Numbered from the stretch's first letter, positions 1,330 to 26,038 are shown. The stretch: 32,000 nucleotides of DNA from Phycisphaera mikurensis NBRC 102666 (GCF_000284115.1 NC_017080.1:3720001-3752000), one strand, 5' to 3'. Notes: a model not told the origin generated them from the letters alone. Numbers and translations: made by a program.

Positions 1330-1375
1330 CCGCGGACGGTGCGCGGAAACGCCGCCAACCTTCGATGGTCCGCGA
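1330..1375. repeat. Degenerate copy of the IR10-N26 element (CCGCGGACGG-N26-TGGTCCGCGA)
   Basis: The arms differ from the consensus CCGCGGACCG/CGGTCCGCGG at 1 and 2 positions. The spacer 1340-1365 is exactly 26 nt. It lies in the gap between the stop of the 1405..2142 gene and the SNF2 start. Confidence 0.5.
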
Positions 1376-1404
1376 CGTCCGGAGGAGCTTGCTGATCCCG
1401 GCGC

Positions 1405-2142
1405 TCAGGCGGCGAGGCGGACGGGGGGGGTCTGCTCGGTCTCGGGGCGGACCTGGTTGGCGGGGGCGGCGGGGGCGGCGGCCTGGAGGTAGGTGCTCAC
1501 GGGGTCGCTCCAGGGGCCGGCTTGCTGCTTGCCGTTGACCCAGGCGGCGCGGAGCCACACGCGGGTGCCGCCGGGGGCGGAGGCGGGGAAGGAGACCTCC
1601 GACTGGTACTTGGTGGTCGCGCCCTCGAAGGACCAGCCCGCCGGGTCGGCGGGGGTCTGGTCGCCCACGAAGGTCTGCACCCACGCGGCCACGGCGCCCG
1701 GGGCCTTGCCGCGCTTGCTGGCGGTGTGGGGGTCGAAGAGGCGGAGCGTCACCTCGCGGCCGCGGACGGCGCCGACGATGGCCGAGGGCGCCGCGCTGGG
1801 CACCGGCACCGGCGTGGCGCCGTTGCGGAGGCGGATGCCCAGCCGCACCTTGAGCTGGTCGCTCACGTCGCTGTTGGCGGCGACGGTCGCGTACAGCTCG
1901 CGGCCGACCTTCAGCAGCGCGTCGCGGGCGGTGTCGCGGGCGGCGGTCTGCTGCTTGGAGCGCAGGCCCTGGGACCGCTGCACCTCCAGATCGGTCGCCG
2001 CCGCGGCGTACGGCGTGTAGACCGCGCGGTACGCCGCCGCCTGATCGGCGGTCAGCCCGAAGCGCGCCGGGTCGCCGGAGAGCGCCTCGTCGAAGTTGAG
2101 GGCGAACGGCAAGAGTTGAGAGTCCGAAACGGGGAAAGCCAT
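1405..2142 (-). CDS. Hypothetical protein, 245 aa (helical N-terminal half, beta-rich C-terminal half)
   Basis: This is the internal ATG of track ORF 1405..2346. It is preceded on the minus strand by AAGGAG with a 4-nt spacer (tccctcagAAGGAGccccATG). The residues upstream of this Met are G/P/R-rich and non-protein-like. The sequence begins MAFPVSDSQLLPFALNFDEALSGDP...; I recognise no family. Confidence 0.6.
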   Translation of the reverse strand: MAFPVSDSQLLPFALNFDEALSGDPARFGLTADQAAAYRAVYTPYAAAATDLEVQRSQGLRSKQQTAARDTARDALLKVGRELYATVAANSDVSDQLKVRLGIRLRNGATPVPVPSAAPSAIVGAVRGREVTLRLFDPHTASKRGKAPGAVAAWVQTFVGDQTPADPAGWSFEGATTKYQSEVSFPASAPGGTRVWLRAAWVNGKQQAGPWSDPVSTYLQAAAPAAPANQVRPETEQTPPVRLAA

Positions 2143-2357
2143 GGGGCTCCTTCTGAGGGAACGAAGCGGCGGGTCGGCGTCTGGCCCCGGAGCAACACGC
2201 CCCGGCCGCCCGCGGAACGCCCTTCGACCCGCCCCGGCCCCCCCTTGAGCCACCCGGGCGAAAATCCTTAAATCAGCCGCCGGAAGTCCATCACCGCCCC
2301 GCGGTGGCCCCGCCCCAAGCCCCGGCGGCCCGGATCCGTGCGGCACCCGCCCGACCG

Positions 2358-2567
2358 CGCAGAGCCGCCACGCGCGTTCCTGCCACCAACTCCCGGACGC
2401 GCGGAGCCGACACGCGCGTTTCTGCCATTATCTCCCGGTCGCGAGGGGCTGCCACTCGCGTTCTTGTCGCAAACCCCCGGCCGCACGGAGCCGCCAAGCG
2501 CGTTATTGCCGCACGAATCCGGCCGCGGGGAGCTGCGCCGCGCGTTCGCCCTTGAGGTCGGCCCTCC
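2358..2567. repeat. Tandem array of five 42-bp direct repeats
   Basis: Units start at 2358, 2400, 2442, 2484 and 2526. CGCGTT is invariant at unit positions 16-21 in all five units. It is part of the 8-bp palindrome ACGCGCGT at 2370-2377 and 2412-2419. GAGC occupies positions 5-8 in 4 of 5 units and CCGG occupies 36-39 in units 1-4. Positions about 27-34 are variable. The array lies in the 684-nt divergent intergenic region. Confidence 0.85.
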
Positions 2568-2608
2568 TGTTCCTGCGCGTCCAGCCGCCGGCCGCAAGCG
2601 CCAGCCCC

Positions 2609-2654
2609 CCGCGGACCGCCCGCCGTTTCCGCCGTTCCGCCCCGCGGTCCGCGG
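2609..2654. repeat. IR10-N26 element copy A (CCGCGGACCG-N26-CGGTCCGCGG)
   Basis: Perfect 10-nt arms at 2609-2618 and 2645-2654. The complementarity extends to 12 bp (CCCGCGGACCGC / GCGGTCCGCGGG). The spacer 2619-2644 is 26 nt. Confidence 0.8.
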
Positions 2655-2826
2655 GCGGGAAGCCGTCCGCCGGGCACGCCACGCAGCGGGTGCCGCCCGG
2701 GGCCCTCAAAGCCCCGCCAAGCCGTGTGAGGCGTCTGCGGACCGGTCCCACCGCTGGCCTCCCTCTTCCGGCGTACCGTCTCCGCCGGAACCCGCGTCGT
2801 GCCCGCGACCAGAAAGGAGGCTGCTG

Positions 2827-3648: not shown

Positions 3649-4845
3649 ATGACGCACGGAGACGCAGCCGAGACCGACAAAACCTCCGCCGGCGAGGCTG
3701 CGCGGTTTCTCGAGCCGCACCTCCGGGGCGGGAGGTTCGATGCCGACCCTCACGAGATTCCCAGCGAGTTCCTGAAGGACCTCGCCGTCCTCGAAGAGCT
3801 CGTCATCGAGACCGCCAAGTGGCGGCACCGCCAGATGCACCCGACGCGGCAGCGGACGGTTAAGAACTTCAAGCGGGGCGTCCGGCTCAACCTCACGGGC
3901 GTCGGTGAGGGCAGCGCGATTCCGCTCTTCCGGCTGCACCTCGACCCGGCAGCAAACCTCTTTGACGAGCAGCGGAGGTGCTTTGAGGAGGCGCGCCTCG
4001 CCATCGTGCAGACGCTCGGCTCGGCGTCCGAGGTGATCGACAAGGAGATCGGTCGGCTGCCGCCAAAGCTGCTGACCTACTTCGACCGCCTCGGGCGGAA
4101 CTTAAAGGCGGGTGAATCAATGGAACTGGGCGACGGGAGCGGGGCCGTTGGGCGCCTGACGCCGGAGCGGCGGCTGCAGCTGCTGCAGGATGCGCAGGTC
4201 AAGACCTACCGAAACGAGGTGACGCTGCTCGGCTCGATCCACAGTGGAGACAAGCTGAACGACACCTTCGAGCTGGCTGCCGACGATGGGAGGACCTTCC
4301 AAGCGCCTTGGCCCGCACCCTTCCGTGAGCAAGTACAAGAGGCTTGGAGAGGCTTTGAGGACGGCGTGCGCGTCAGCGTGCAGTGCGTCGGCGAGTTCAC
4401 CAAGGAGGGCAGACTCCAAAGGGTCGACTCGGTGGAGCAGCTCACGGTGCTGGATCCGCTGGACGTCGGGCTGCGCTTGGCCAGCTTCCACACCCTCGAA
4501 GACGGGTGGCACGACGGGGAGGGAAGTGCTTTGGACCGAGACGGCCTCGGTCGCCTGACGGAGGCTTTCGACCGACACTGGCCCGAAGACCTGTCACTCC
4601 CCCACCTGTGGCCGATGCCCGAGCCGGAGGCCGGCGGCGGGGTCCACGCCCAGTGGAAGAGCGGACGCCGCAGCGTCAGCCTCGAGGTCGATCTCCGCGC
4701 CTCCTCGGCCTACTTCACCAGCTTCGACCTCGACGACCCCGACCCGGAGGTCGGCGTGGAGGAGGAGGGCCTCGACCTGTCGCTCCCGGCGAGCTGGGAG
4801 CGGGTCGCGAGCGAGGTGCGGGGCTTCCTCGGGGGCGACGCTTGA
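3649..4845 (+). CDS. Hypothetical protein, 398 aa, no recognisable catalytic motif
   Basis: ATG is preceded by GAGGTGA (gatGAGGTGAcccATG). Third-position GC is high and amino-acid composition is balanced. G+C looks lower than in the core genes (for example ttaagaacttcaag). I see no Walker A, HNH or PD-(D/E)xK signature. Confidence 0.7.
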   Translation: MTHGDAAETDKTSAGEAARFLEPHLRGGRFDADPHEIPSEFLKDLAVLEELVIETAKWRHRQMHPTRQRTVKNFKRGVRLNLTGVGEGSAIPLFRLHLDPAANLFDEQRRCFEEARLAIVQTLGSASEVIDKEIGRLPPKLLTYFDRLGRNLKAGESMELGDGSGAVGRLTPERRLQLLQDAQVKTYRNEVTLLGSIHSGDKLNDTFELAADDGRTFQAPWPAPFREQVQEAWRGFEDGVRVSVQCVGEFTKEGRLQRVDSVEQLTVLDPLDVGLRLASFHTLEDGWHDGEGSALDRDGLGRLTEAFDRHWPEDLSLPHLWPMPEPEAGGGVHAQWKSGRRSVSLEVDLRASSAYFTSFDLDDPDPEVGVEEEGLDLSLPASWERVASEVRGFLGGDA

Positions 4846-5219
4846 GCCCTGAGAAGCCCCTGCACCGGTCGATCCACCCGACGAAGCTCGACCCCGTTGG
4901 GGCCATGGACTACCTCGCGTTCCGGCCCAACTCGGCGGACAAGGACCAGCTGTCGCTCTATGACGGTGATCAGATCGGGGCGGAGGCGGCTTGGCTGCAC
5001 CACACCCGCGACGGGGCACACTCGCACGGGATCGGGACCGTGACCGCCGCGGAAGCCACCGCCGCGGGGACGCCGGCCAGGAGCGACCCGGACGAGTTCC
5101 CCGAGCACGTTCTCGCCGACTTCTCGGCGCTGCCCGGACGGAAGGCGAAGCAGCGGGCCGCGGCGACCCTGTGCGAGGCGGCGAATGCCCGCGGGTGGTC
5201 CTTCCGGCCGGAGGCCTGA
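4842..5219 (+). CDS. Hypothetical small protein (125 aa from TTG 4842, or 104 aa from ATG 4905)
   Basis: It shares a frame with the tail of track ORF 4383..5219. TTG 4842 overlaps the upstream TGA in a TTGA junction. Third-position GC is high from 4905 onward (MDYLAFRPNSADKDQLSLYDGDQIGAEAAWLHH...). The start codon is uncertain. Confidence 0.5.
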   Translation: MSPEKPLHRSIHPTKLDPVGAMDYLAFRPNSADKDQLSLYDGDQIGAEAAWLHHTRDGAHSHGIGTVTAAEATAAGTPARSDPDEFPEHVLADFSALPGRKAKQRAAATLCEAANARGWSFRPEA

Positions 5220-5232
5220 CGCTGCGGCGGAC

Positions 5233-5253
5233 GCCCCGCTGTCCGGGCGGGGC
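5233..5253 (+). terminator. Short GC hairpin after the small gene; a possible transcript boundary before mod
   Basis: GCCCCGC (5233-5239) and GCGGGGC (5247-5253) form a 7-bp stem with a 7-nt loop. There is no U-tract. Confidence 0.3.
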
Positions 5254-5297
5254 TGGCGGGGCACCGAGGCGGCCTCGCGTTCCGGTAGCTTCCGCGG

Positions 5298-7553
5298 ATG
5301 CTCAACCTCTCGGACGCGGAGAAGCAGGAGGTGCTGCGGCACCTGGACGAGGGGCGGCCGCTGCCGGACCGGTACCGGTTCCTGCTGTTCGGCGACAAGC
5401 GGGAGGTGGAGCTGGTCTGGAACGGGAAGACCTCGGAGGTGTGCAACGCGGTGCTGCCCTTCCAGACAATCGAGCACGTGGACGAGCCGCGGACCGAGAA
5501 AGAGGTGGAGGTGCACCCGGGGCTGTTCGACACGCGGGGCCGTCAGGAGAGCGGGTGGAGCAACAAGCTGATCTGGGGCGACAACAAGCTGATCCTCTCG
5601 TCGCTGAAGAACGGGCCGATGCGGCGGGCGATCGAGGACGCCGGCGGGCTGAAGCTGATCTACATCGACCCTCCGTTCGACGTAGGGGCGGACTTCTCGA
5701 TGGACATCGAGGTGGGCGAAGGAGATACGCTCACGAAGCGAGCCTCCATCATGGAGGAGATTGCTTACCGCGATACGTGGGGAAGGGGCCACGACTCTTT
5801 CATCACAATGATCTACGAGAGGCTTGTGCTGATGCGAGGCCTGCTTGCTCCCACTGGAAGTATCTACGTACATTGTGATTGGCGCCTCAGCGGCTTGGTG
5901 CGAATGGCTATGGACGAGATCTTCGGCAGAAGCTCGTTCCAGAATGAGATTTCATGGTGCTACCGGGAGGCGATCAATTCTAAGAAGCGTTGGAATCGCA
6001 AGCACGATTCAATCCTCTATTACACAGCCGACCCTGTCGACTATGTTTTCAATCCTAATGAGGTGCTCCAGAAGCATTCGGCGGCAACAACGGCGAAGTA
6101 TAAACATATCGATGAAGAAGGAAGGCGCTACCGATTGATGGGGCGCGGCCTCGCCGGGAGCCCGATCAAGTCTGCACGAGATGTTTCGCCAGACTGGGAG
6201 GAGACACACCCAGATCTTGTCTATCGCCATTACCAGCGTGATGGAACGTATGCCGTCGACTACTGGAACATCGACATCATCAATCAGGCAGCCAATGAGA
6301 GGCTTGGCTACCCGACACAGAAGCCTGAAGAGCTGGTCGAGCGTATTGTTAAGGCTTCAACCAACCCCGGAGACCTCGTCGCCGACTTCTTCTGCGGCTC
6401 CGGCACCACCGCCGCCGTGGCGGAGAAGCTCGGCCGCAAGTGGATCGCCACCGACCTGGGCAAGTTTGCCATCCACACCACCCGCAAGCGGATGATCGGT
6501 GTGCAGCGTGAGCGGCAGGCTTCCCGCCAAGGTTTTCGGGCTTTCGAAATCCTGAACCTCGGCCGCTACGAGCGCCAGCATTTCGCGGGCGTCAACCCCA
6601 CGCTCCGCGAGGCGGAGCAGGCGGCCCAGCTGCAAGCCAAGGAAGAGGCCTTCCGCGAGCTGATCCTCCACGCCTACCACGCGGAGGCCACCACCGGCTT
6701 TCAGACCTTCCACGGCAAGAAGAACGGCCGGCCGGTGGCGATCGGCCCGGTCAACCGCCCGGTCTCGCGGCTCTTCGTGGAGGAGGTGGTCAACGAGTGC
6801 CGCCAGAAGAACCTCACCCGGTGCGACCTGCTCGGCTTCGAGTTCGAGATGGGCCTCTTCCCCCGCGTGCTCGAAGACGCCAAGGCCAAGGGCATCGACG
6901 TGGCGGCCAAGCAGATCCCCGCGGAGGTTTTCGACAAGCGGGCGGTGGACCGCGGGCACGTGAAGTTCCACGACGTGGCGTACATCGAGGTGGAGCCCGA
7001 AACGCGGACCGGCAGCCACAAGCACGGCCACGCCGCGGGCATCCGCGTGACGCTGGCTGACTACTCCGTCTTCTACTCGCAGGGTTCGGTCGACCGGGCT
7101 CAGGAGGAGTTCGGCGGCAAGAAGAGCGGCTCCAAGGTGGTCGTCGACAACGGGCAGATCGTGAAGGTGACCAAGGAGAAGAGCGGCCGCGTTCACACGG
7201 AGGTGCTGACCAAGCAGTGGACCGACTGGATCGACTACTGGTCGGTGGACTTCGACTACGAGTCGAAGAAGGAGGTGGTGCTGCGGCAGACCGCGGAAGA
7301 GGCCGGCCCGGCGGAGCAGGGGCTGAGCGCGTACGAGGAGGTCTGGACGGGCGACTACATCTTCGAGAACGAGTGGCAGAGCTTCCGCACCAAGAAGGAC
7401 CGCAAGCTGGACCTCACCAGCGCCTGGCACGAGGTGAAGCCCGGCAGAGCCGGCCCCCGGAAGGTGGCGGTGAAGGTGGTCGACATCTTCGGCAACGACA
7501 CCACGGCGGTGGTGGCCGTCGCGGCGCCCGAGCCGCTGAAGGAGAAGAAGTAG
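5298..7553 (+). CDS. mod: Type III restriction-modification system methyltransferase (Mod), beta-class N6-adenine/N4-cytosine DNA methylase, 751 aa
   Basis: Motif [15 protein letters not shown] (DPPF at nt 5667-5678) precedes motif [27 protein letters not shown] and [12 protein letters not shown]. This IV-before-I order is the beta-class order. The stop TAG abuts the ATG of the following res-like gene. Confidence 0.9.
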
Positions 7554-10235
7554 ATGGCTCTGCACCCCGACTTCCCTACCGACCCGCACGCGGTGCTCGA
7601 CCCGTCGGTCCGCTGGTTCCCCGCCGACGAGGCGCTCCGCGAGGTGGCCGCCAATCGACTGACCCCGCCGCTGGTGGCGGAGCTGCGGAAGAAGGTCCAG
7701 GCCTTCCGCGACTCCGGCTACGAGGGGGCGAGCGAGACGAGCCGTGCGCTGCTGCACTGGTGGTTCGTGGAGGAGCACCTGATCGCCCCGCACGACGGGC
7801 CGAGCTTCCGCTTCAAGTACTACTTCGCCCAGCGCGAGGCGATCGAGACGATCGTCTGGCTGACCGACGTGGCGAAGGTGCAGGACCCGGCGGACCTCCT
7901 GCGCTACGACGCGACGGGCGAGGTCTCCCGCAAGATGTTCGACGAGGACTGGCGGCGCTACATGGTGAAGATGGCCACCGGCAGCGGCAAGACCAAGGTG
8001 CTGAGCCTGGTGCTCGCGTGGAGCTTCTTCAGCAAGACCTACGAGGCCGACTCGCCGCTGGCGCGGAACTTCCTGGTGATCGCGCCCAACATCATCGTGC
8101 TCGACCGCATCCGCAAGGACTTCGAGGGGTTGACCATCTTCTTCCAGGACCCGGTGCTGCCCGAGAACGGCTTCCGGGGCCGGAACTGGCGCGACGACTT
8201 CCAGCTGACGCTGCACGTGCAGGACGACGTGCGCGTGCGGCAGCCCACCGGGAACATCTTCCTCACCAACATCCACCGCGTGTACGACGGGGCCGACGTG
8301 GAGGCGACGGCGGAGGACGAGGACACGATGGACTACTTCTTCGGCAAGCGGCCGACCGGGGCGACCAACGACAGCAAGGTGGACCTCGGCGAGGTGGTCC
8401 GCGACATCGACGAGCTGGCGGTGCTCAACGACGAGGCCCACCACGTCCATGACAAGAAGCTGGCGTGGTTCAAGTCGATCCAGGACATCCACAACCAGCT
8501 GGTTCAGAAGGGCGGCGTGCTCTCGCTGCAGGTGGACGTGACGGCCACGCCCAAGCACGAGAACGGGGCGATCTTCGCGCAGACGGTCTCTGATTACCCG
8601 CTGGTGGAGGCCATCGCCCAGGACGTGGTGAAGCATCCGGTGCTGCCCGACGCCGCGAGCCGGGACAAGCTGGAGGAGCACCAGACGACGCGCTTCACCG
8701 ACCGGTACGCCGACTTCCTGGAGCTGGGCGTGCTGGAGTGGCGGAAGGCCGCGGCCGAGCACGCGAAGGCGCGCAAGAAGGCGATCCTCTTCGTGATGAC
8801 CAACGACACGAAGAACTGCGACGAGGTGGCCGCCTGGCTGGAGCGGCACAACCCCGACCTCGCCGACGCGGTGCTGACGATCCACACGAAGAAGACCGGC
8901 GAGGTGAGCGAGGCGTCCAGCGGGAAAGCCGCCGACGAGCTGGCGGACCTGCGTCGCCAAGCCAACGGCATCGACCGGGCCGACAGCCCCTTCAAGGCGA
9001 TTGTCTCGGTGCTGATGCTTAAAGAGGGCTGGGACGTGAAGAACGTCACCACGATCGTCGGCCTGCGTGCCTACTCCGGCAAGAACAAGGTGCTGCCCGA
9101 GCAGACCCTCGGCCGCGGCCTCCGCAAGATGTACGGCGGCGGGCTGGAGGAGCGGGTGAGCGTGGTGGGCACGCCGGACTTCATGGAGTTCATCGAGGGC
9201 ATCCAGCAGGACGGCGTGGAGCTGGAGCGCTCTGCGATGGGCACCGGCACCCCGCCCGCGGCCCCGCTGGTGGTGGAGGTGGACACCGAGGACGAAAGCA
9301 AGGACATCGACGCGCTCGACATCGAGATGCCGGTCCTCGCGCCCAGGTACCGCCGCGAGTACCACAATCTCGGCGACCTGGACCCGGCGACGGTGCCGAT
9401 CCACCCCGTGACGTACCAGCGGTTCTCCGCGGAAGAGCAGCGGGAGATCGTCTTCAAGGACATGGCCACCGGCGGCGTGACGCACACCACCCGGCTGGAC
9501 GGGGCCGGCGTGGCCGACCACCGCCGCGTGCTCGCGTGGTTCACGCAGCGGCTGCTCACGGACCTGCGGCTGGTGAGCGGCTTCGACGTGCTCTACGGCA
9601 AGGTAAAGGCGGTCGTCCGCGACCGGCTCTTCGGCGGGACGATCGATCTGGAGGACCCGAACACGCCGCGGAACCTGTCCGAGCCGGCCGCGACCAAGTC
9701 GCTGCTGGACGCGATGACCAAGGGGATCAACGAGCTGACGGTGCAGGAGTCCGGCGACGCCGAGATCCGCGACACGATCAAGCTGCGGACCACGCGGCCG
9801 TTCATGGTGAAGAGCCAGGACTTCGTGGCGGCGAAGAAGAGCGTCTTCAACCGGACGATCGGGGACAGCGGGCTGGAGCTGCGCTTCGCCGAGTGGCTCG
9901 ACGGCTGCGCCGACGTCGCCTCCTTCGCGAAGGTCTACCTCGCGGTGCCCTTCACGCTCGACTACGTGAAGGCCGACGGCGACCTCTCGACCTACCGGCC
10001 CGACTTCTTCGTGAAGCTCACCGACGGCAAGAGGTACGTGGTGGAGACCAAGGGCCTCGAAGACGTGGACGTGGCCCCGAAGATGGCCCGACTGAAACAG
10101 TGGTGTGAGGACGTGGGCCACGCGAGCCCGCCGTGGGAGGTGGGCTTCGTCTACGTGGACGAGGACGGCTTCGACGAGCACCGGCCCAAGAGCTTCGCGG
10201 GGCTGGTGGAGGGGTTCCGGGAGTTTCAGGACTGA
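7554..10235 (+). CDS. res: Type III restriction enzyme Res subunit (SF2 helicase plus C-terminal PD-(D/E)xK-like nuclease), 893 aa
   Basis: Motifs: Walker A MATGSGKTKV; DEAH box LNDEAHHV; helicase C-terminal block LMLKEGWDVKNV; C-terminal YRPDFFVKLTDGKRYVVETKG (D...E.K nuclease-like). The start is directly adjacent to the mod stop (tagATG). Confidence 0.9.
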   Translation: MALHPDFPTDPHAVLDPSVRWFPADEALREVAANRLTPPLVAELRKKVQAFRDSGYEGASETSRALLHWWFVEEHLIAPHDGPSFRFKYYFAQREAIETIVWLTDVAKVQDPADLLRYDATGEVSRKMFDEDWRRYMVKMATGSGKTKVLSLVLAWSFFSKTYEADSPLARNFLVIAPNIIVLDRIRKDFEGLTIFFQDPVLPENGFRGRNWRDDFQLTLHVQDDVRVRQPTGNIFLTNIHRVYDGADVEATAEDEDTMDYFFGKRPTGATNDSKVDLGEVVRDIDELAVLNDEAHHVHDKKLAWFKSIQDIHNQLVQKGGVLSLQVDVTATPKHENGAIFAQTVSDYPLVEAIAQDVVKHPVLPDAASRDKLEEHQTTRFTDRYADFLELGVLEWRKAAAEHAKARKKAILFVMTNDTKNCDEVAAWLERHNPDLADAVLTIHTKKTGEVSEASSGKAADELADLRRQANGIDRADSPFKAIVSVLMLKEGWDVKNVTTIVGLRAYSGKNKVLPEQTLGRGLRKMYGGGLEERVSVVGTPDFMEFIEGIQQDGVELERSAMGTGTPPAAPLVVEVDTEDESKDIDALDIEMPVLAPRYRREYHNLGDLDPATVPIHPVTYQRFSAEEQREIVFKDMATGGVTHTTRLDGAGVADHRRVLAWFTQRLLTDLRLVSGFDVLYGKVKAVVRDRLFGGTIDLEDPNTPRNLSEPAATKSLLDAMTKGINELTVQESGDAEIRDTIKLRTTRPFMVKSQDFVAAKKSVFNRTIGDSGLELRFAEWLDGCADVASFAKVYLAVPFTLDYVKADGDLSTYRPDFFVKLTDGKRYVVETKGLEDVDVAPKMARLKQWCEDVGHASPPWEVGFVYVDEDGFDEHRPKSFAGLVEGFREFQD

Positions 10236-10258
10236 CGCGAGGAGAGCGGGAACGTGCG

Positions 10259-11449: not shown

Positions 11450-11484
11450 AAGCAGCCGCAACGCGAACCCGCCGCGGAGGACGC

Positions 11485-17505: not shown

Positions 17506-17647
17506 GAGCGGAATCCTGGGGGTGCGGGTTGCTCCAGCGGAGCGGGAGGACGGGACCGGAAGCCGTGCGCTTCATCGTACGGAACTTTCTCTTCCGTTCA
17601 CGAGAACCCGTGAGCCACGACCCCCGGCGCTTCTCCCCCCGCCGGCC

Positions 17648-17976
17648 GCCACGCCGCTTGCGGGGTGGCGAGCGCGGGAGGTGGTTGCGATGCGGCCACC
17701 CCCCAAGGGGCGTGGCACCCGGGGGCCCCGATCAAGCGGAAATCTCGGGTGCCACGCCGCTTGCGGGGTGGCGCGCGAAGGGTCGTCGCGACGCGGCCAC
17801 CCCCCAAGGGGCGTGGCACCCGGAGACCCCAACCAAGCGGAGATCTCGGGCGCCACGCCGCTTGCGGGGTGGCGAGTGCGGGAGGCGGTTGCGATGTGGC
17901 CACCCCCCAAGGGGCGTGGCACCCGGGGGCCCCGAGCAAGCGGGGATCTTGGGCGCCACGCCGCTTGCGGCGTGGC
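17648..17976. repeat. REP/BIME-like cluster 2: seven 22-nt palindromes in about 3.3 tandem units of ~102 bp
   Basis: L-type copies lie at 17648, 17751, 17852 and 17955. R-type copies lie at 17695, 17796 and 17899. L-to-L spacing is 103, 101 and 103 nt. The cluster lies in the divergent region between the BNR gene start (17505) and the dehydrogenase start (18022). Confidence 0.9.
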
Positions 17977-18021
17977 ACCCGGCCGGTGTGGGAGGGGTGG
18001 ACGGCCGGGTAGCTTCCGCGG

Positions 18022-18972: not shown

Positions 18973-18984
18973 CGGCCGGCGGGA

Positions 18985-19314
18985 TCAGCCGGTTCGCTCG
19001 ACGTTCACGACGCGGACGTTGCGCCGGAGCGGGTCGCCAAGATCCGCCGGCGGTCCGACTTCCCGCGGCTTCGGCGTGGCGTCGATGCCCAGCGCGTCTC
19101 CGGCGAGCACGATCAGGCGGCAGATCCCGAAGGCGAGCACGCCGGTGCCCAGCGCCACCACGGCGGTGAGCAGCAGCGGGACGGCGGCCACGATCGCCGC
19201 GGAGACCAGCCCGACCTTCAGCGGCCACGCCCAGCCGCGGAGGGTTCGCGCCGCGGCGGCGGGATCTCGCATGAAGGCGGCACCCGGGCCGCTCTGGAAG
19301 GTCTCGAAGCGCAT
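18985..19314 (-). CDS. Small hypothetical membrane protein (about 109 aa)
   Basis: This is an internal Met of track ORF 18985..19422. A long hydrophobic stretch, VGLVSAAIVAAVPLLLTAVVALGTGVLAFGICRLIVLAG, is present. No RBS was recognised, and both the start and the reality of the gene are uncertain. Confidence 0.4.
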   Translation of the reverse strand: MRFETFQSGPGAAFMRDPAAAARTLRGWAWPLKVGLVSAAIVAAVPLLLTAVVALGTGVLAFGICRLIVLAGDALGIDATPKPREVGPPADLGDPLRRNVRVVNVERTG

Positions 19315-19454
19315 CGCCAAGACGGTACGGCTCCGGTCGGCGGTGGGTTCGCGATTCCGCGTCGGCGGGCTGAAGTGGTCGGCCGGTCGCTCCGATGAAA
19401 CCGGCACAACCCTCGCGGCCACTCCTCATGGCCTTCCTCTTCCCGGAGCACCCA

Positions 19455-20339
19455 ATGTCACCCGCCACCGCCACGACCGACGCCGAGACCGAAGCGATGA
19501 TCCGAGGCTCGATCGACGAGATCTCGCACATCGCCACGCTGCCCGAGGTCACGCTGAAGATCATCGAGCTCGTCGACAACCCCGACTCGACGGCGCAGGA
19601 CCTCAACAAGATCATCAGCCACGACCCGGCGCTGGGCGCCCGCATCCTCAAGGTCGTGAACTCGGCCTTCTACGGCCTGCCCGGCCAGATCGGCTCGATC
19701 AACCGGGCGATCGTGCTGCTGGGCCTCAACGCGGTGAAGAACATCGCGATCGCCGCGTCCCTCACCAAGCTGTTCCGCGGGGGGAAGATCTGCGACGGCT
19801 TCGACGCCCGCGAGCTCTGGTCGCACTGCATCGCCACCGCCACCGCCTGCCGCCTGCTCGCCGAGCGGGCGAAGCTGGGCAAGGGCGACGAGGCCTTCCT
19901 CGCCGGCCTGATCCACGACATCGGGATCATGGTGGAGATCCAGGCCCGCCGCACCGACTTCGTGGAGGCGGTCAACCACGCCGTCGCCAGCGAGGGCACG
20001 TTCCGCGCGTCGGAGATCGCCGTGCTCGGTGCGACGCACGAGCAGTTCGGCGCGGCCCTGTGCAAGACGTGGAAGTTCCCCGAGACGTTCCAGAACGTCG
20101 CCGGCTTCCACCACGAACCCCGCCTCCTGCCCGAGGGCGCCCGCGCCCTCGCCGTGCTCGTGCACATCGCCGACCACCTCACCAAGACGCTGGAGCTTGG
20201 CTTCACGCTGGACGTCGAGGGGGAGCTGGACCCGGCCCTCGTCGCCGAGTTGAACCTGACCCAGGCGGATCTCGACGAGATCGCCACCGGGCTGCCCGAG
20301 GCCATCGCCGAGGCGCAGGGCGTCTTCAGCGGCGGCTGA
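19455..20339 (+). CDS. HDOD domain-containing signalling protein, about 294 aa
   Basis: LPEVTLKIIELVDNPDSTAQDLNKIISHDPALGARILKVVNSAFYGLPGQIGSINRAIVLLGLNAVKNIAIA is a typical HDOD N-terminal pattern. The start could instead be 19395 or 19428. Confidence 0.85.
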   Translation: MSPATATTDAETEAMIRGSIDEISHIATLPEVTLKIIELVDNPDSTAQDLNKIISHDPALGARILKVVNSAFYGLPGQIGSINRAIVLLGLNAVKNIAIAASLTKLFRGGKICDGFDARELWSHCIATATACRLLAERAKLGKGDEAFLAGLIHDIGIMVEIQARRTDFVEAVNHAVASEGTFRASEIAVLGATHEQFGAALCKTWKFPETFQNVAGFHHEPRLLPEGARALAVLVHIADHLTKTLELGFTLDVEGELDPALVAELNLTQADLDEIATGLPEAIAEAQGVFSGG

Positions 20340-20461
20340 AGCCGACCGGGGTTCCCGGGCCCCTCGCGGGCTCGGGGCGGGGCCGCCCGGACGCGGGCCC
20401 GCGCCGGCAAGGACGCCGTCCGGAGGAGGAAACCGCCACCGCACGGCGGAAGAGGAACGCG

Positions 20462-20487
20462 ACCCGGGCCTTCACCGGCCCGGGTTT
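20462..20487 (+). terminator. Candidate intrinsic terminator between convergent genes
   Basis: ACCCGGGCC (20462-20470) and GGCCCGGGT (20477-20485) form a 9-bp stem with a 6-nt loop, followed by TTT. The U-tract is short. Confidence 0.4.
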
Positions 20488-20505
20488 GCGCTGCGCGCCG
20501 CGGGC

Positions 20506-22368
20506 TCATCGGCGGACCGCGGGCCCTCCGGGGGAGGCGGGCCGGAAGTCGACCAGGTGCAGCTCCGGCCGCGTTCTGCCGTTCCAGGTGTTGAGCTTGA
20601 GCTCGGCGATGGCGTCGAGGCGGTCGCCCACGGCGTGCAGCTCGGCGTCGTCGCCGCGGCCGAAGGCGACGGCTCGGAGGCTGCGGTTGCCCAGCCGAAG
20701 CTGGAAGCAGGCATGGGCCCCGCGGCCGCCCATGCGGCACGGCGGACGCTCGATCTCGAGCCCGCGGAGCCGGACCTTCGGCCGCGGGTTGCCCATGCCG
20801 AAGGGGGCCATCCGCGTGAGCGCGTCGATGGCCTCGGCGGCGAGGTCGTCCTCCCCCGCGTCGCCGTCGTGCCGGACCTCCCGGCACAGCCGCTCGGCGG
20901 GCAGCACCGCGGCGACGGCGTCGTTGAGCGCGGCGCGGAAGGCGTCCAGCGCGGCGGGCTGGAGCGTCATCCCGGCGGCCATGCGGTGGCCGCCGAAGGC
21001 GAGCAGGTGGCCGGCGCAGGCGGACAGGCAGGCGTGCAGGTCGACGCCGCCGACGGAGCGGGCGGAGCCGCGGAGCTGGCCCTCGGGCGTGCCGGCGAGC
21101 AGCACGACCGGGCGGAAGTAGCGCTCGACGAGGCGCGACGCGACGATCCCGACGACGCCGGGGTGCCAGTCCGCGCCGGCGAGCACGATCACCCGGCGGT
21201 CTTCGGTGGCGTGGCCGCCGGCCTCCACGGCCTCGGTGGCCTCGGCCAGCACCTCCCGCTCGACCTGCCGCCGGCAGTCGTTCTCGGCGGTGAGCGTGTG
21301 GGCGAGGTCCTCGGCGCGCCGGCCGGTGGCGGTGGTGAGCAGCTCCACCGCCTCGGCGGCGTGCCCCATGCGGCCGCAGGCGTTGATCCGCGGCCCGATC
21401 ACGAAGCCGACGTGCGTGGCGGAGACCTCCTCGCCGTCGAGCTTGGCGGCGCGGATGAGCGCGGCGAGGCCGGGCAGCCGCGTTGCCTTGAGCCGCTTGA
21501 GGCCGTTGGCGACGATGCGCCGGTTCACGCCGCAAAGCGGCACGAGGTCGGCGACGGTGCCCATCGCGGCGAGCGACAGGAGGTCGACCAGCTTGTCCTT
21601 GAGCGGCGGGGGCAGGCGCGGCGTGCCCATCGCGACGCGGGCGGTCGCCCAGGCGAGGAAGAAGGCGACGCCGGCGCCGCACGGCGGCGGATCGAAGCCC
21701 TCCGCGGGCGTTCCGCCGAGCTCGGGGTGGACGAGCAGCGCGTCAGGGGGCGAGCCCTCCGGCGGCCGGTGGTGGTCGGTGACGATCAGGTCGAGGCCCA
21801 GCTCGGCCGCCCGCGCCGCGGCCCCGACGGCGGTGATCCCGCAGTCGACCGTGACCACCAGCGGCGGCGTGCCGTCGCCGGGATCCAGCGCGGGGTGCGT
21901 CGCGTACCGGGCGATCCGCTCCAGCGCCTCGGCGTGCAGGCCGTAGCCCTCCTCGACGCGGTGCGGCACGTAGGTGCCGACGCGCGGCCCGCCGGCGGGA
22001 CCGACCCGCCGCCCCAGGTCGGTGAGCACGTGCCAGAGGATCGAGGCGGCGGTGATGCCGTCGACGTCGTAGTCGCCGTACACGATGACCGGCCGCCCCG
22101 CCGCCACCGCGGCGGCGAGCCGCGCGGCCGCGGCGGGCACGCCCGGGAGCGCGTCCGGCTCGGGCAGCTCCGACAGCCGCGGGTCGAGGAAGGCCGCGGC
22201 CGCGTCGGGGTCGGCGTGGCCACGCTGCACCAGCAGCCGCGCCACCAGCGGGCTCACGCGCAGCGCCGACGCGATCGCCCGCAGCCGGGCGGGGTCGGCG
22301 GTGAGCGTCGGGTTCTCTCCCCCGCGCTCGATCCAGCGGGAGAGCGTCTGCATCCTTGCGACGGTCAT
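20506..22368 (-). CDS. recJ: Single-stranded-DNA-specific exonuclease RecJ, 620 aa
   Basis: DHH-family motifs are VIVYGDYDVDGITA, TVDCG and LIVTDHH. The length and order are typical of RecJ. Confidence 0.95.
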   Translation of the reverse strand: MTVARMQTLSRWIERGGENPTLTADPARLRAIASALRVSPLVARLLVQRGHADPDAAAAFLDPRLSELPEPDALPGVPAAAARLAAAVAAGRPVIVYGDYDVDGITAASILWHVLTDLGRRVGPAGGPRVGTYVPHRVEEGYGLHAEALERIARYATHPALDPGDGTPPLVVTVDCGITAVGAAARAAELGLDLIVTDHHRPPEGSPPDALLVHPELGGTPAEGFDPPPCGAGVAFFLAWATARVAMGTPRLPPPLKDKLVDLLSLAAMGTVADLVPLCGVNRRIVANGLKRLKATRLPGLAALIRAAKLDGEEVSATHVGFVIGPRINACGRMGHAAEAVELLTTATGRRAEDLAHTLTAENDCRRQVEREVLAEATEAVEAGGHATEDRRVIVLAGADWHPGVVGIVASRLVERYFRPVVLLAGTPEGQLRGSARSVGGVDLHACLSACAGHLLAFGGHRMAAGMTLQPAALDAFRAALNDAVAAVLPAERLCREVRHDGDAGEDDLAAEAIDALTRMAPFGMGNPRPKVRLRGLEIERPPCRMGGRGAHACFQLRLGNRSLRAVAFGRGDDAELHAVGDRLDAIAELKLNTWNGRTRPELHLVDFRPASPGGPAVRR

Positions 22369-22384
22369 CGGCGGAGGTTATCCG

Positions 22385-22430
22385 CCGCGGACCGCGGGCC
22401 CGCCCGAGCGAAACGGGCCGCGGTCCGCGG
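22385..22430. repeat. IR10-N26 element copy D
   Basis: CCGCGGACCG at 22385-22394 and CGGTCCGCGG at 22421-22430. The spacer is 26 nt, and the stem can extend into the spacer with one bulge. It lies between the icd-like stop (22480) and the recJ -10-like hexamer (22375-22380). Confidence 0.8.
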
Positions 22431-22479
22431 AACGCGGTGCCGCGGGGCCGGGGTTCCGGGTGTTCGGGGGCGTCGCGGC

Positions 22480-23988
22480 CTACTGCCCCTGGCCGAGCGA
22501 GAAGCCCGCCTCGCCGTCGAAGGTGCACAGGTGCTCGGTCTTGATGAAGTCCAGCCCGGCGTCGGCGAGCCGGGTCAGCAGGCCGAGGACCTGCCGGTGC
22601 GAGGCCTCGCCCCCGCCCCGGGGCACGAAGCGGCAGCGCCAGTGGTCGGTGCAGAAGGTTTCGGGGAAGCCCTCCGGCCACACCTTCACGCCCCGGTTGG
22701 TGATCATCTGCAGCTGGAGCGGCTGGCCATCGGCCGCCGCGTGGAGCTCCGCGGCGAGCGCGTCGGGGTCCCGCTCCGCCGGGTCCCAGTCCAGGAAGAC
22801 GTCCACCCCGACGAGCGCCTTCACCGGCTTCTCCCGCGTCGCCGGCCCGACGCCCGGGGCCGCGCGATCCGCGACCCCGGCATAGACCGCGGCCGGCAGG
22901 TGCTCGGGCCGCTGGCCGAGCCGCTGGATCACCGCGTCGGCGAAGGCGCGGGTGCCGACCGGGTCGTGGCCCCGGCCGTCGTGCAGGTCGGCGGTGTGCA
23001 CGCCGTCCTCGATCGTGCGGAGCACCGCGTTGTGGATCTTCTCGGCGGCCCCGGGCTTGTTGAGGTGCACGAGCATCTGCACGGCCGCGAGCAGCAGGCC
23101 CGTGGGGTTGGCGACGTCGCGCCCGGCGATGTCGGGGGCGCTGCCGTGGATCGCCTCGAACATCGAGCAGGTGTCGCCGATGTTCGAGGTGCCGCACAGG
23201 CCGACGCTGCCGGCGATCTGGGCGGCGATGTCCGAGAGCACGTCGCCGTAGAGGTTCAGCGTGAGGATCACGTCGAAGCGCTCGGGCCGGTCGGCGAGCA
23301 TCGCGGCGCCGATGTCGATGATCCAGTGGTCCGACTCGATCTCGGGGTACTCGCCGCGGATCTCGTCGAAGACCCGGTGGAAGAGGCCGTCGGTCGCCTT
23401 CATGATGTTGTCCTTCGTGAAGCAGCTGACCCGCTTGCGGCCGGCGGCGCGGGCGTACTCGAAGGCGTGGCGGACGATCTTCTCGCAGCCGGGCCGCGAG
23501 ATGAGCTTGAGGCACTGCGTCACCTCGGCCGTCTGGCGGTGCTCGATGCCGCCGTAGGTGTCCTCCTCGTTCTCGCGGACGATCACGACGTCCATGCCCG
23601 GGTGCCGGCTCCCGACGAAGGGCGCGTAGGCGACGCACGGGCGTACGTTCGCGTAAAGCCCCAGCGTCTTGCGGGTCGTCACGTTCAGCGACTTGTAGCC
23701 GCCGCCCTGGGGCGTGGTGATCGGGGCCTTCAGGAACACCCGGTGCTTCCGGAGCGTGTCCCACGAAGAGGCCTCGATGCCCGCGGAGACGCCGCGCTCG
23801 TAGACCTTCTTGCCGATCTCGATGGTGTCGTAGACCAAGCCGGCACCGGCCGCGTCGAGCACGCGGAGCGTCGCGTCCATGATCTCGGGGCCGATGCCGT
23901 CGCCGTGCGCGACGGCCACGGTGACGGAGGCCGGGGGATCGGGGAGGTCCAGCGGGCGGTCCGGGGCGGTCGAGGGGGCGGCGGGCAT
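22480..23988 (-). CDS. icd: Isocitrate/isopropylmalate dehydrogenase family protein, most likely NAD(P)-dependent isocitrate dehydrogenase with a C-terminal extension, 502 aa
   Basis: Motifs are HGDGIGPEI, SLNVTTRKTLGLYANVRP and NLYGDVLSD (family signature). The start is set at the internal ATG 23988 because a good promoter would start transcription near the ORF's first ATG at 24078. Confidence 0.8.
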   Translation of the reverse strand: MPAAPSTAPDRPLDLPDPPASVTVAVAHGDGIGPEIMDATLRVLDAAGAGLVYDTIEIGKKVYERGVSAGIEASSWDTLRKHRVFLKAPITTPQGGGYKSLNVTTRKTLGLYANVRPCVAYAPFVGSRHPGMDVVIVRENEEDTYGGIEHRQTAEVTQCLKLISRPGCEKIVRHAFEYARAAGRKRVSCFTKDNIMKATDGLFHRVFDEIRGEYPEIESDHWIIDIGAAMLADRPERFDVILTLNLYGDVLSDIAAQIAGSVGLCGTSNIGDTCSMFEAIHGSAPDIAGRDVANPTGLLLAAVQMLVHLNKPGAAEKIHNAVLRTIEDGVHTADLHDGRGHDPVGTRAFADAVIQRLGQRPEHLPAAVYAGVADRAAPGVGPATREKPVKALVGVDVFLDWDPAERDPDALAAELHAAADGQPLQLQMITNRGVKVWPEGFPETFCTDHWRCRFVPRGGGEASHRQVLGLLTRLADAGLDFIKTEHLCTFDGEAGFSLGQGQ

Positions 23989-24045
23989 AACGGGGAGCGT
24001 TTCGGGGCGGGCGGGCGGGCGGGCGATCCGCCGCGGCGGTCGCTT

Positions 24046-24074
24046 TTGGCAAAGCCGATTGCATGAAGTAAGGT
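24046..24074 (+). promoter_or_regulatory. Candidate sigma70-type promoter for the wHTH regulator gene
   Basis: TTGGCA (24046-24051), a 17-nt spacer, then TAAGGT (24069-24074). It lies about 40 nt upstream of ATG 24114 in the only AT-richer patch of this intergenic region. Confidence 0.4.
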
Positions 24075-24080
24075 TCATGA

Positions 24081-24109
24081 ATCCTAGATCGACTCCTCCC
24101 GCACGTCAA
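24081..24109 (-). promoter_or_regulatory. Candidate sigma70-type promoter for the icd-like gene
   Basis: On the minus strand: TTGACG (24109-24104), a 17-nt spacer, then TAGGAT (24086-24081). Confidence 0.5.
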
Positions 24110-24113
24110 CCCG

Positions 24114-24455
24114 ATGCCCAAGACCCGGAAGAACCCCGGCCCCGCCCCCGCCCCCGCCCCCGCCCCCGCCAGGGAGGCGGCGCCACGCTTCACCTTTCTC
24201 ACGAACCATTCCCACGTGCTGCTGCTGCTCGCGGGCGAGCCGGCGCTGCGGGTACGCGACCTCGCGGCCCGCGTCGACGTCACCGAGCGGGCGGTGCAGA
24301 AGATCCTCGCCGACCTGGTCGCGGTGGGGGTGCTGACCCGCGAGCGGGAGGGGCGGCGGAACCGGTACGAGGTCCACCCCGAGCGGTCGCTGCGGCACCC
24401 GGTGGAGTCCCACCGCACGGTGGCGGACCTGATCGCGATGGTGCACGGGGCGTAG
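24114..24455 (+). CDS. Winged helix-turn-helix transcriptional regulator (ArsR/MarR-like), 113 aa
   Basis: LRVRDLAARVDVTERAVQKILADLVAVGVLTREREGRRNRYEV is a wHTH pattern. The N-terminal (PA)5 tract is encoded by (CCCGCC)x5 at 24141-24170. Confidence 0.75.
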   Translation: MPKTRKNPGPAPAPAPAPAREAAPRFTFLTNHSHVLLLLAGEPALRVRDLAARVDVTERAVQKILADLVAVGVLTREREGRRNRYEVHPERSLRHPVESHRTVADLIAMVHGA

Positions 24456-24583
24456 CCGAGCCCGTGCGACGGGCGCCCGGGAATGCGTTGCTGCGCGACC
24501 GGAAACGGGGCGTCCGCGGCGGCGAGGGTGTCGCCGGGGCGGTGTTGCCGCTGCGCGGGGGATCGGGCCGATCCCGGGCTTGC

Positions 24584-25933
24584 ATGCCGCTGCCCCGAAC
24601 CCCCGTCGCGCGTCCGATGCGTTCCGTCTGGCTCGTGCTCGCGCTCGCCGCGTCGGCGGGCCTCGCCGCCGGGCAGGGCGCAGGCCGCGTGGCCGCCGAC
24701 GTCGAGGCGCTGCTGCGGCCGCGGCCGGGGGTGGAGGGGCCGCCGCTGGGGCAGGTCCACGCGGAGCCGCGGATTAGGGTGCGGGTGCGGGCGGGGGTGG
24801 ACCGCGTGACGCTCGGCGAGGCCGGCGCCCGCGTGGCGCTGCGCGGCGGCGGGCCGACCGGCCCGGGGTCGCTGCTCCCGGGGCCGGTGGTGCTGCGGGC
24901 GGGGGCCGGCTTCTTCGTGAGCGAGGACGCGACGGGGGCGCGGCTCCGCTGGCCGGTCGCTCGCCTGAGCGCCGCGGCCGGGTCGGCCGGGGCGCCGCTC
25001 GCGCTCGACGGCGAGCCGCACCCCGGCTCGCTGACGCTCGCGCTGCGGAGCGGCGAGCCGCGGATGGACGCGATCGAGCTCGTCGGGCTCGAGTCGTACC
25101 TGCCCGGCGTGCTCGATCGCGAGCTCTACGCCTCGTGGTCTCCGGAGGCGTTCCGGGCTCAGGCCATCGCCGCCCGCAGCTACGCGATCTGGGAGGTGGA
25201 GCTCACGCGGCGGGCAGCCGGCGGCGACCCCGGCTTCGACCTCGAGAACACCACCGCGAGCCAGGCCTACGGCGGCGTCGCCAAGAACCCCAAAGCCGCC
25301 GACGGCGTCGCGGCCACCCGCGGCGTGGTGCTCGCGTACGGCGGCCGGGTGCTGCCGGCCTTCTACTGCTCGGCCGTGGGCGGGCCGGGCGCCGACGCGG
25401 CCCAGACCTTCCCGGGGCGGGCGCCCGACCTGGCCCCGCTGCGCGGGAGCGACCACGGCGGACGCGACGCGGCGAGCCCCCGGTTCGGCTGGGGCCCGGT
25501 CACGCGGGACCGCCGCGAGCTCGCCCGGCGGATCGCCGCCTGGGGCGCCGCGAACCAGAACCCCGTGGCGGGGCTGCGGGTGCTGGAGGCGATCGAGCCC
25601 GCCGCCACCAACTTCGTCGGCCGGCTCGCCGCGTACCGCCTGCGCGACGCCTCGGGCGCCGCGTTCCTGCTCCGCGCCGACGAGCTGCGGCACGCCGCCA
25701 ACGCCGCCGCGCCCGGCCTGCCCGCCGCCGCCGGCGACGACCGGCTCTTCTCCGGCGACTTCGCCGTCCGCCGCGGGGGCGAGGCCTTCACCTTCTCGCG
25801 GGGCCGCGGCTTCGGTCACGGCGTGGGCCTGAGCCAGTGGGGCGCGCAGGGGATGGCGGCGCGGGGCTTCGCCCACCCCGCGATCCTCGCCGCCTACTAC
25901 CCGGGGGCGACGCTCGCGCGGGCCTATCGCTGA
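24584..25933 (+). CDS. SpoIID/LytB domain-containing protein (cell-wall amidase enhancer-like), about 449 aa
   Basis: This is an internal Met of track ORF 23879..25933, and ATG 24617 is an alternative start. The signal peptide is MRSVWLVLALAASAGLAAG. Motifs are LESYLPGVLDRE...AFRAQAIAARSYA and GRGFGHGVGLSQWGAQGMA. Confidence 0.85.
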   Translation: MPLPRTPVARPMRSVWLVLALAASAGLAAGQGAGRVAADVEALLRPRPGVEGPPLGQVHAEPRIRVRVRAGVDRVTLGEAGARVALRGGGPTGPGSLLPGPVVLRAGAGFFVSEDATGARLRWPVARLSAAAGSAGAPLALDGEPHPGSLTLALRSGEPRMDAIELVGLESYLPGVLDRELYASWSPEAFRAQAIAARSYAIWEVELTRRAAGGDPGFDLENTTASQAYGGVAKNPKAADGVAATRGVVLAYGGRVLPAFYCSAVGGPGADAAQTFPGRAPDLAPLRGSDHGGRDAASPRFGWGPVTRDRRELARRIAAWGAANQNPVAGLRVLEAIEPAATNFVGRLAAYRLRDASGAAFLLRADELRHAANAAAPGLPAAAGDDRLFSGDFAVRRGGEAFTFSRGRGFGHGVGLSQWGAQGMAARGFAHPAILAAYYPGATLARAYR

Positions 25934-25992
25934 CGCGCGACCCGCGACGCGGGGCGGCGCAGCCCCCGCGTCCCCGCGTCCCCGCGTCCCCG

Positions 25993-26038
25993 CCGCGGAC
26001 CGTCGGCGGTTCGGGCGCCCCGAGTCCGCGGTCCGCGG
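25993..26038. repeat. IR10-N26 element copy E, between convergent genes; a possible bidirectional terminator
   Basis: CCGCGGACCG at 25993-26002 and CGGTCCGCGG at 26029-26038. The spacer is 26 nt. It sits between the stops at 25933 (+) and 26043 (-). Confidence 0.8.

Follow-up and report, generated by a model that had tools for sequence, protein, structure and literature searches.

What is the short inverted repeat that recurs between genes along a 32,000-nucleotide stretch of the Phycisphaera mikurensis NBRC 102666 chromosome (NC_017080.1:3720001-3752000, hereafter the window), and what might recognise it? A first-pass annotation of this sequence had described two 10-bp arms, CCGCGGACCG and CGGTCCGCGG, held exactly 26 nt apart, and had proposed either recognition by a dimeric protein or a tiny mobile or templated element. 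Our analysis indicates that this 46-bp dyad is a real, lineage-specific, high-copy element, matched by no repeat family described so far. Among dispersed extragenic palindromic motifs it is best classed as a variant whose signature is that of a site for protein docking and bending, not that of a hairpin. We put at roughly 0.5 the probability that a sequence-specific protein of two-fold symmetry recognises the dyad as double-stranded DNA, binds it and bends it.

A pattern search for CCGCGGACCG-N26-CGGTCCGCGG recovered the five perfect copies listed by the first-pass annotation, starting at positions 2609, 11404, 13707, 22385 and 25993, and found none in 100 dinucleotide-preserving shuffles of the window. 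The two further elements that it had reported, a degenerate copy with the same spacing (1330-1375, three arm mismatches) and a pair of perfect arms around 125 nt (11889-12033), were also found. On a gene map built here from GC3 (third-position G+C) frames and Pfam, all seven elements are intergenic, as had been claimed: two lie between convergent genes, four between co-directional genes and one in a long divergent region (2609). The window holds 14 perfect arms, ten of them in the five 26-nt copies, two around the 125-nt spacer and two solitary. The solitary arms, at 5487 (plus strand) and 14193 (minus strand), contradict the earlier statement that no perfect 10-mer occurs inside a coding sequence; both are probably chance matches outside the family, and a composition-based estimate predicts about one chance perfect arm per window.

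To follow the element beyond P. mikurensis, loci were fetched through protein homologues and chosen without regard to the motif; the window together with loci L121 and L175 forms the unbiased sequence. Locus L121 (isocitrate dehydrogenase, IDH, 83% identical; G+C 72%) contains four perfect and two one-mismatch copies. L175/L176 (IDH 80%; G+C 73%), two samples that are 99.85% identical to each other, contains two perfect and two one-mismatch copies, and L181 (C-terminus of nicotinate phosphoribosyltransferase, NAPRTase, 80% identical to that of L121; G+C 73%) one perfect and two one-mismatch copies. The arms and the 26-nt spacing are thus common to P. mikurensis, three related uncultured species and marine metagenome contigs. 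No copies were found in the more distant relatives L177 (IDH 74%; G+C 61%) and L178 (IDH 66%; G+C 63%). A variant arm "dialect" was considered for these two loci and rejected, with no recurrent dyad in either; the recurrent 10-mer of L178, CTTCCGGGGG, occurs as scattered singles with no inverted partner and no common context.

An exact-N26 scan of metagenome contigs returned 53 loci, of which 31 come from the marine assemblies ORXU/ORXM/ORXT, two from Ga0115029 and the remainder singly from scattered sources. Among 2.9 million viral contigs the pattern does not occur. A variable-gap scan (N11-41) of genome contigs, used solely as a background control, gave chance matches in unrelated high-G+C genomes with wide-ranging spacers, 3 of the ~130 listed measuring 26 nt. 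A full-text search of the literature turned up neither this sequence nor any account of a repeat of this kind in Phycisphaera.

The spacing is strict, and here the first-pass annotation was right. All complete copies in the unbiased sequence have 26 nt between the arms, and perfect arm pairs, counted at spacings of 12 to 40 nt, number 11 at 26 nt and zero elsewhere. For 26 nt the mismatch spectrum, taken over the window, L121 and L175, is bimodal: 11 perfect copies, four with one mismatch, none with two, one with three, and background from four mismatches up. There are no compensatory arm changes, since every arm-like 10-bp inverted repeat at this spacing is the same 10-mer, which argues that the arms need a fixed sequence beyond pairing. 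Outside perfect elements the 10-mer occurs five times in the window against ~2.7 expected, and in L175 it is at most about 3-fold above a Markov expectation; the excess in L121 and L175 consists mostly of intact arms of imperfect copies. The CCGCGG (SacII) and CGGWCCG (RsrII) palindromes that overlap in the arm are neither depleted nor over-represented outside the elements, and a restriction or repair signature was accordingly rejected.

Density in the unbiased sequence is about one copy per 4.5 kb, which, extrapolated to 3.8 Mb, would correspond to some 600-800 copies per genome, an extrapolation and not a count. Intergenic copies make up 15 of 17. The contexts in the unbiased loci are four convergent, seven co-directional (tandem), three divergent and two intragenic, where 1:2:1 is expected for the intergenic classes. 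The earlier observation that six of the seven window elements sit just past a stop codon is literally true; because the contexts are near 1:2:1, the association with gene 3' ends is weak.

Interior statistics were calculated on 47 non-redundant copies (window, L121, L175 and two multi-hit metagenome sources), grouped by source and not by content. The first-pass annotation had taken the spacers for free sequence. They display instead a reproducible, position-specific alternation of G or C (S) and A or T (W), and their mutual resemblance exceeds that of shuffles. W reaches 67-74% at spacer positions 8-9 and 18-19 and 50-60% at positions 1 and 26, and stays at or below 21% elsewhere; the A/T tracts span positions 7-10 and 17-20, position 1 being a pyrimidine (Y) and position 26 a purine (R). 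The tract pattern appears separately in the window (p = 7e-6), in L121 plus L175 (p = 4e-9) and in the marine set (p = 2e-31), and is absent from 18 scattered metagenome matches (p = 0.085), which are taken to be chance. Over the 94 half-sites, Y occupies position 11 in 99% and G position 13 in 77%, while A stands at position -2 in 50% and never at -1. Read from the outside in, a half-site therefore comprises A at -2, any base but A at -1, then CCGCGGACCG, Y, S, G, SSS, a 4-nt A/T tract (T more often than A) and SSS.

This alternation follows the helical repeat. With the single A/T of the arm and positions -2/+2 included, W recurs about 5, 12.5, 16.5 and 25 bp to either side of the centre, and the power spectrum of the W profile, which is symmetric about the dyad, peaks at 10.3 bp; the more conserved G/C positions lie at about 0, ±10.5 and ±20 bp. 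It had been anticipated that the spacers might prove to be one conserved sequence once oriented, making this an ordinary family of repetitive extragenic palindromes (REPs). Across the 26 positions the oriented consensus does hold 6.1 bits, compared with 2.0 ± 0.13 for shuffles, a weak signal that reflects a base-class pattern and not a conserved sequence. Pairwise identity of spacers is above that of shuffles and reaches at most 19/26, with no near-identical pair among 65 copies. The choice of T or A in the left and right tracts fits independence (counts 15, 12, 6 and 3). The unit of ~50 bp thus consists of two inverted half-sites of 23 bp each, independent of one another and meeting at the centre, so that the 26 nt are 2 x 13, the degenerate inner parts of the two halves.

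We also examined whether the element behaves as a hairpin. Six covariation tests against column shuffles, covering the long hairpin as a whole, segments 1-6, 7-10 and 11-13 with their mirror partners, and two mini-hairpin models, found no base-pair covariation in the interior (z from -2.8 to +0.6). The stem seemed to extend into the spacer by 1.13 contiguous pairs against 0.39 in shuffles, an effect that was gone once column composition was controlled and is hence a by-product of the S/W columns. Whole elements fold at -20 to -44 kcal/mol, the same as with shuffled spacers, and the arms alone form a stable stem. Canonical terminators with a stem and a U-tract are not enriched in the window (6 against 3.9 expected); none of the terminator-like sites in 11000-27000 coincides with any of the seven copies, whose flanks lack T runs. 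Rfam gave no family at gathering score in the window, and a permissive search of 11300-12100 only a 14-bit chance match. Orientation by transcription was also rejected: a faint T/A asymmetry shows no consistent relation to the strand of the neighbouring gene.

Three family copies lie within genes, all in one frame, encoding xADR-x8-xVRG. The 46 bp in the HrpA helicase gene of L121 are translated as AADR-ALLEAFDA-AVRG, a peptide homologous to AADRALCEAFDAV of a homologue that is 62% identical and has a linker of equal length; the DNA of that homologue reads CCGCCGACCG at the matching place, then 23 nt, then CGGTCACCCA. In the NAPRTase gene of L121 the alignment to Pfam NAPRTase_C runs without gaps through the element (residues 3-68 against profile 44-110), and L181 carries a copy at identical codons (80% amino acid identity; PADR-GCRDLLEP-VVRG) with one arm base different and a diverged interior. 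Synonymous changes affect 1 of 6 codons in the NAPRTase arms and 16 of 54 in the rest, the expected direction with too few sites for significance. The third copy, in a marine-contig open reading frame (ORF) of L126, has a strong coding signature, encodes SADR-GHVEALGD-AVRG and has no Pfam match. Judged from these alignments and coding signatures, the intragenic copies are native coding sequence and not insertions. The HrpA and NAPRTase genes are each divided into three adjacent ORFs with intact coding signature in L121 (4829-8116) and L181 (6728-8195), either through assembly frameshift errors or as recent pseudogenes.

Between genes the sites shift. In the conserved block SpoIID-MarR-IDH-RecJ-HDOD-dehydrogenase, P. 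mikurensis and L175/L176 have their intergenic copies at different junctions, with none in common. The IDH/RecJ junction of L175/L176 is 21 bp long and lacks the motif (in L176, 2461-2481, a plain G+C hairpin, CCGCCCCTCGCCGAGGGGGCGG, runs into the RecJ start), these relatives being highly diverged. The perfect-or-absent spectrum together with the shifting intergenic positions suggests that copies are created in one step and then strictly maintained. Target-site duplications were not observed among the 47 copies: direct 2-bp flank matches occur in 6/47 and inverted ones in 8/47, and matches of 3 bp or more are essentially absent.

Protein binding, DNA bending and a cellular role are what we infer from this anatomy. 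Direct readout with bending is suggested by the invariant, uncompensated arms, the strict length, the independent halves and the helically phased base-class interior, and the 20-22 essentially invariant positions point to base-by-base reading by a specific protein. Such a protein would be a dimer or a pair of dimers that reads the invariant outer boxes and bends the DNA between them, and the A/T positions would mark where the minor groove faces the protein around which the DNA curves. The phasing logic is that applied to the Escherichia coli gyrase motif, with its phased ~10.75-bp G/C variation and its strong sites in the BIME-2 class of bacterial interspersed mosaic elements (BIMEs; PMC6379681), and to the phased T-tracts of the Haemophilus uptake signal (PMC3458573). 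The proposal of the first-pass annotation that a dimeric protein is preferable to a terminator hairpin is favoured by these results (no compensatory arms, no covariation, independent halves, 10.3-bp phasing), while its premise of fixed geometry with free sequence was wrong. Purifying selection on the DNA would keep each copy intact, also within genes, of which the NAPRTase_C arms kept in L121 and L181 around a diverged interior may be a sign; the near-exclusive intergenic placement would follow because 46 constrained bp rarely fit a protein. The likeliest role would be one in architecture or topology, the dyad serving between transcription units as a dedicated site of binding or bending, like BIME clusters, although this is a guess by analogy that we hold much more loosely than the binding reading.

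Several points weigh against this interpretation. No convincing candidate for the binding protein was found among the window proteins, and the gene at 11485-11880, flanked by two copies, was rejected as its cognate, with no informative family match. Bending and groove orientation are drawn from sequence statistics only, 33 of the 47 copies behind the interior statistics come from one metagenome, and the estimate of 600-800 sites per genome extrapolates from just ~86 kb of sequence. A 10-bp stem of G+C only would also form in RNA or single-stranded DNA, so that the arms may also act as a hairpin. One-step creation, moreover, clashes with intragenic copies that are not insertions, one of them kept at the same codons across species.

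In its widest and more tentative form, to which we would give somewhat worse than even chances, the proposal is that the dyad is the recognition site of a lineage-specific, two-fold-symmetric DNA-bending protein marking the extrapolated 600-800 chromosomal places, the sites being created and policed in place, even in genes where the product tolerates them. If so, it would be a genome-wide architecture-type or self-marking signal of a new kind and would lie outside the Proteobacteria, the group for which REP/BIME and uptake sequences were defined. The dyad would occupy an estimated 1% of a small planctomycete genome. If the binding reading is right, one 52-bp probe should retrieve a new sequence-specific factor (nucleoid, topology or uptake) from a phylum in which little is known of chromosome biology, and the dyads would serve as a ready-made map of its sites of action. 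Palindromic repeats of the dispersed kind tend to be classed as REP hairpins or terminators, neither of which the dyad fits, and its copies pose an evolutionary puzzle, being perfect or absent and shifting between intergenic sites, yet native and long kept within genes.

Among other explanations, a REP/REPIN- or MITE-like (miniature inverted-repeat transposable element) mobile element would account for the dispersed, palindromic, high-copy and almost always extragenic distribution, for the different junctions occupied in the conserved gene block, for a bimodal spectrum that suggests one-step creation, and for the one copy with a 99-bp insert between intact halves. The 23-bp halves would then be terminal inverted repeats or hairpin arms for a transposase (a REP-associated tyrosine transposase, RAYT, or another), with only perfect-ended copies continuing to transpose, and REP families without terminal tags do exist (PMC3733652). 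We nevertheless consider this unlikely, as the flanks show no target-site duplication, the best pair among the 65 copies is far from the near-identity of transposing families, the GTAG/CGTC tag is lacking and the "loop" of 26 nt is longer than REP loops, reported at 2-20 nt. Copies inside genes are native with no change in length, the interior lacks hairpin covariation, and the viral contigs are devoid of the pattern; the suggestion of a tiny mobile or templated element thus obtained no positive support. Family searches of the window proteins turned up no match to Y1_Tnp (RAYT). An artefact of chance or composition in a 72% G+C genome could be imagined, because the arms do match by chance in unrelated high-G+C genomes, with broad spacings, and an actinobacterial SGNH-hydrolase gene encodes AADRPGFRYANLAVRG; it is already refuted by the shuffles (zero against five), by the 11 perfect pairs that all fall at 26 nt and by the interior pattern, which is missing from the chance matches.

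A hairpin acting in RNA or in extruded DNA, whose 10-bp G+C stem would serve as a bidirectional terminator or as a barrier at mRNA 3' ends like E. coli REPs, would agree with the position of most copies 2-100 nt from a stop codon, with the several that fill convergent gaps, and with the stability of the arms and of whole elements. The lack of enrichment of canonical terminators may call for another device, and at the IDH/RecJ junction, which holds the element in P. mikurensis, a plain G+C hairpin is present in L176. This explanation seems improbable to us: it needs pairing alone and not a fixed 10-mer, yet compensatory arm variants do not occur, and it gives no role to an unpaired loop of fixed length with phased A/T. 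No U-tract follows the element, some copies at tight co-directional junctions precede the following start codon by 16-35 nt, and 3 of 16 lie in divergent promoter regions and two inside genes. Alternatively, a biased process such as preferential DNA uptake in transformation, as with the Haemophilus uptake signal sequence (USS) and the Neisseria DNA uptake sequence (DUS), might drive accumulation and upkeep in place. Uptake sequences are under-represented in coding DNA, have preferred reading frames in genes and form dyad pairs between genes (PMC2817400). The shared frame of the three native intragenic copies and the occurrence of the motif in related species are in line with this possibility. 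We regard it, too, as improbable, since the family's unit is in every case the arm pair, lone arms show no over-representation (two perfect ones in 32 kb against ~1 expected) and the continuum of sites with 2-5 mismatches expected under such a drive is missing. Natural competence is not known in Planctomycetes.

Comparison with known systems places the dyad near several families and within none. In REPs, which are stem-loops of 20-40 bp, the stem measures 5-13 bp and the loop 2-20 nt; they are conserved over their whole length, usually tagged with GTAG/CGTC and often linked to a RAYT transposase (PMC3733652). BIMEs are protein-binding DNA sites, BIME-2 being a strong gyrase site independent of transcription (PMC6379681). 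Like the REP/BIME sequences of Proteobacteria (in E. coli, gyrase-binding BIME-2 and IHF-binding BIME-1, or RIP/RIB), the dyad is short, palindromic, high-copy, lineage-specific and almost entirely extragenic; it also often lies between convergent or co-directional genes and changes position between relatives. It differs in being invariant only in the outer 10-11 bp of each half, around a 26-nt interior that is unpaired, fixed in length and phased in S/W only, so that its 10-bp stem lacks both a REP-sized loop and pairing covariation. The flanks of the 94 half-sites carry no tetranucleotide tag, only the preference for A at -2 and the avoidance of A at -1, and the intragenic copies are not insertions. 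With MITEs the dyad shares terminal inverted repeats (perfect 10-bp inverted ends, degenerate to 23 bp), and neither target-site duplications nor empty-site insertion, as judged from the intragenic copies, was found.

An invariant ~10-bp core common to related species, dyad pairs between genes and native in-gene copies in preferred frames recall uptake sequences. Those, however, are single non-palindromic cores at ~1/kb with many copies in genes, whereas here the pair is strict and fixed in spacing, and lone arms are near the composition expectation (12 of the 14 perfect arms in the window are paired). Strong gyrase sites share a centre-symmetric, phased ~10.5-bp G/C-A/T alternation attributed to DNA wrapped on protein, and gyrase cleavage sites are enriched downstream of transcription units (PMC6379681). 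The gyrase motif is 130 bp long, highly degenerate and read indirectly, unlike the 20-22 essentially invariant positions of the dyad. An intrinsic terminator is likewise a G+C-rich inverted repeat just downstream of genes that is able to serve a convergent pair, with a loop of 3-8 nt instead of 26, a U-tract that the dyad lacks, and a stem that is merely complementary rather than invariant in sequence. HIP1 of cyanobacteria (GCGATCGC) is a single 8-bp palindrome of unknown function that occurs at ~1/kb, mostly in genes. Both HIP1 and the dyad are over-represented palindromes present in place in and between genes; the dyad is a 46-bp bipartite unit almost excluded from genes, and CCGCGG or CGGWCCG alone is not over-represented.

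The individual copies in the window occupy varied settings. The degenerate copy (1330-1375; arms CCGCGGACGG and TGGTCCGCGA, 26-nt spacing, profile match E=0.9) lies 29 nt past the stop (1405) of a minus-strand hypothetical gene. The perfect copy at 2609-2654, with A/T tracts at spacer positions 8-10 and 17-18, stands in the divergent region between a minus-strand and a plus-strand hypothetical gene, and just to its left is a 42/84-bp tandem repeat (2350-2547; 4.6 copies, 72% matches). Between co-directional genes, the copy at 11404-11449 is 95 nt past the stop at 11308 and 35 nt ahead of the ATG at 11485, and the split copy (11889-12033) is 8 nt past the stop at 11880 and 18 nt ahead of the ATG at 12052. 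In the latter both 23-bp half-sites (11889-11911 and 12011-12033) are intact, giving two half-site profile matches, and the 99-bp insert (11912-12010) interrupts the dyad exactly at its centre. The insert is strongly self-complementary and unique, and the DNA fold of the whole split element, insert and arms together, has z = -4.6. It was rejected as another repeat family, with no second copy in any sequence compared.

Two copies are found between convergent pairs, in agreement with the first-pass annotation. The one at 13707-13752 fills most of the 67-bp gap between a CIA30-domain gene (stop 13694) and a BNR/CBM6 gene (stop 13762); the other, at 25993-26038, separates a SpoIID-domain gene (stop 25933) from a GlcNAc 2-epimerase gene (stop 26043), and a perfect microrepeat of CCCCGCGT (x3.8, 25964-25993) directly abuts its left arm. 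The copy at 22385-22430 is situated between co-directional minus-strand genes, 49 nt past the IDH stop (22480) and 16 nt ahead of the RecJ ATG (22368). The longest IDH ORF there (22480-24078) encodes 532 aa from the ATG at 24078, and the database protein, 100% identical over 90% of the query, has 479 aa, so that the annotated start lies downstream of that ATG; a sigma-70-like promoter match occurs by this gene on the minus strand (24109-24081). As for the solitary arms, 5487-5496 (plus strand) is within a Type III methylase gene, where the partner position at 26 nt has five mismatches, and 14193-14202 (minus strand) is within the BNR/CBM6 gene, without a partner.

The region 4000-12800 is an island of lower G+C (0.65-0.68 against 0.72-0.78) and is probably a defence island. 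It includes a restriction-modification pair of Type III (Mod 5298-7553, Res 7554-10235), a protein of 391 aa (10133-11308) that weakly matches a BED zinc finger, a 131-aa orphan (11485-11880) with a dyad copy on each side, and a 229-aa protein (12052-12741) with an RxxxxH motif suggestive of a HEPN domain.

Other repeats were also detected. A second family in the window occupies two intergenic regions (12742-13112 and 17506-18021), where two G+C hairpins of ~22 nt, GCCACGCCGCTTGCGGGGTGGC and GCCACCCCCCAAGGGGCGTGGC, occur in clusters, among them a 103-bp tandem array (x3.3) that spans 17643-17976. The inverted 10-mers of this family, CGTGGCACCC and GGGTGCCACG, are also 26 nt apart, and the family looks like a genuine REP/BIME type. 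In L121 a tandem array with a period of ~155 bp (8800-9470), containing CCGGATCGCG and CGGTCCGCGT, lies between the HrpA fragments and a MarR-like gene. Additionally, five Kitasatospora loci (L006, L036, L056, L078 and L091), from several species, have the same 10-bp arms around a conserved 40-nt palindromic interior (CGACGGCAGTCCCGCACCCACCGGTGCGGACTCGCCGACG and variants), which is a separate actinobacterial palindromic repeat.

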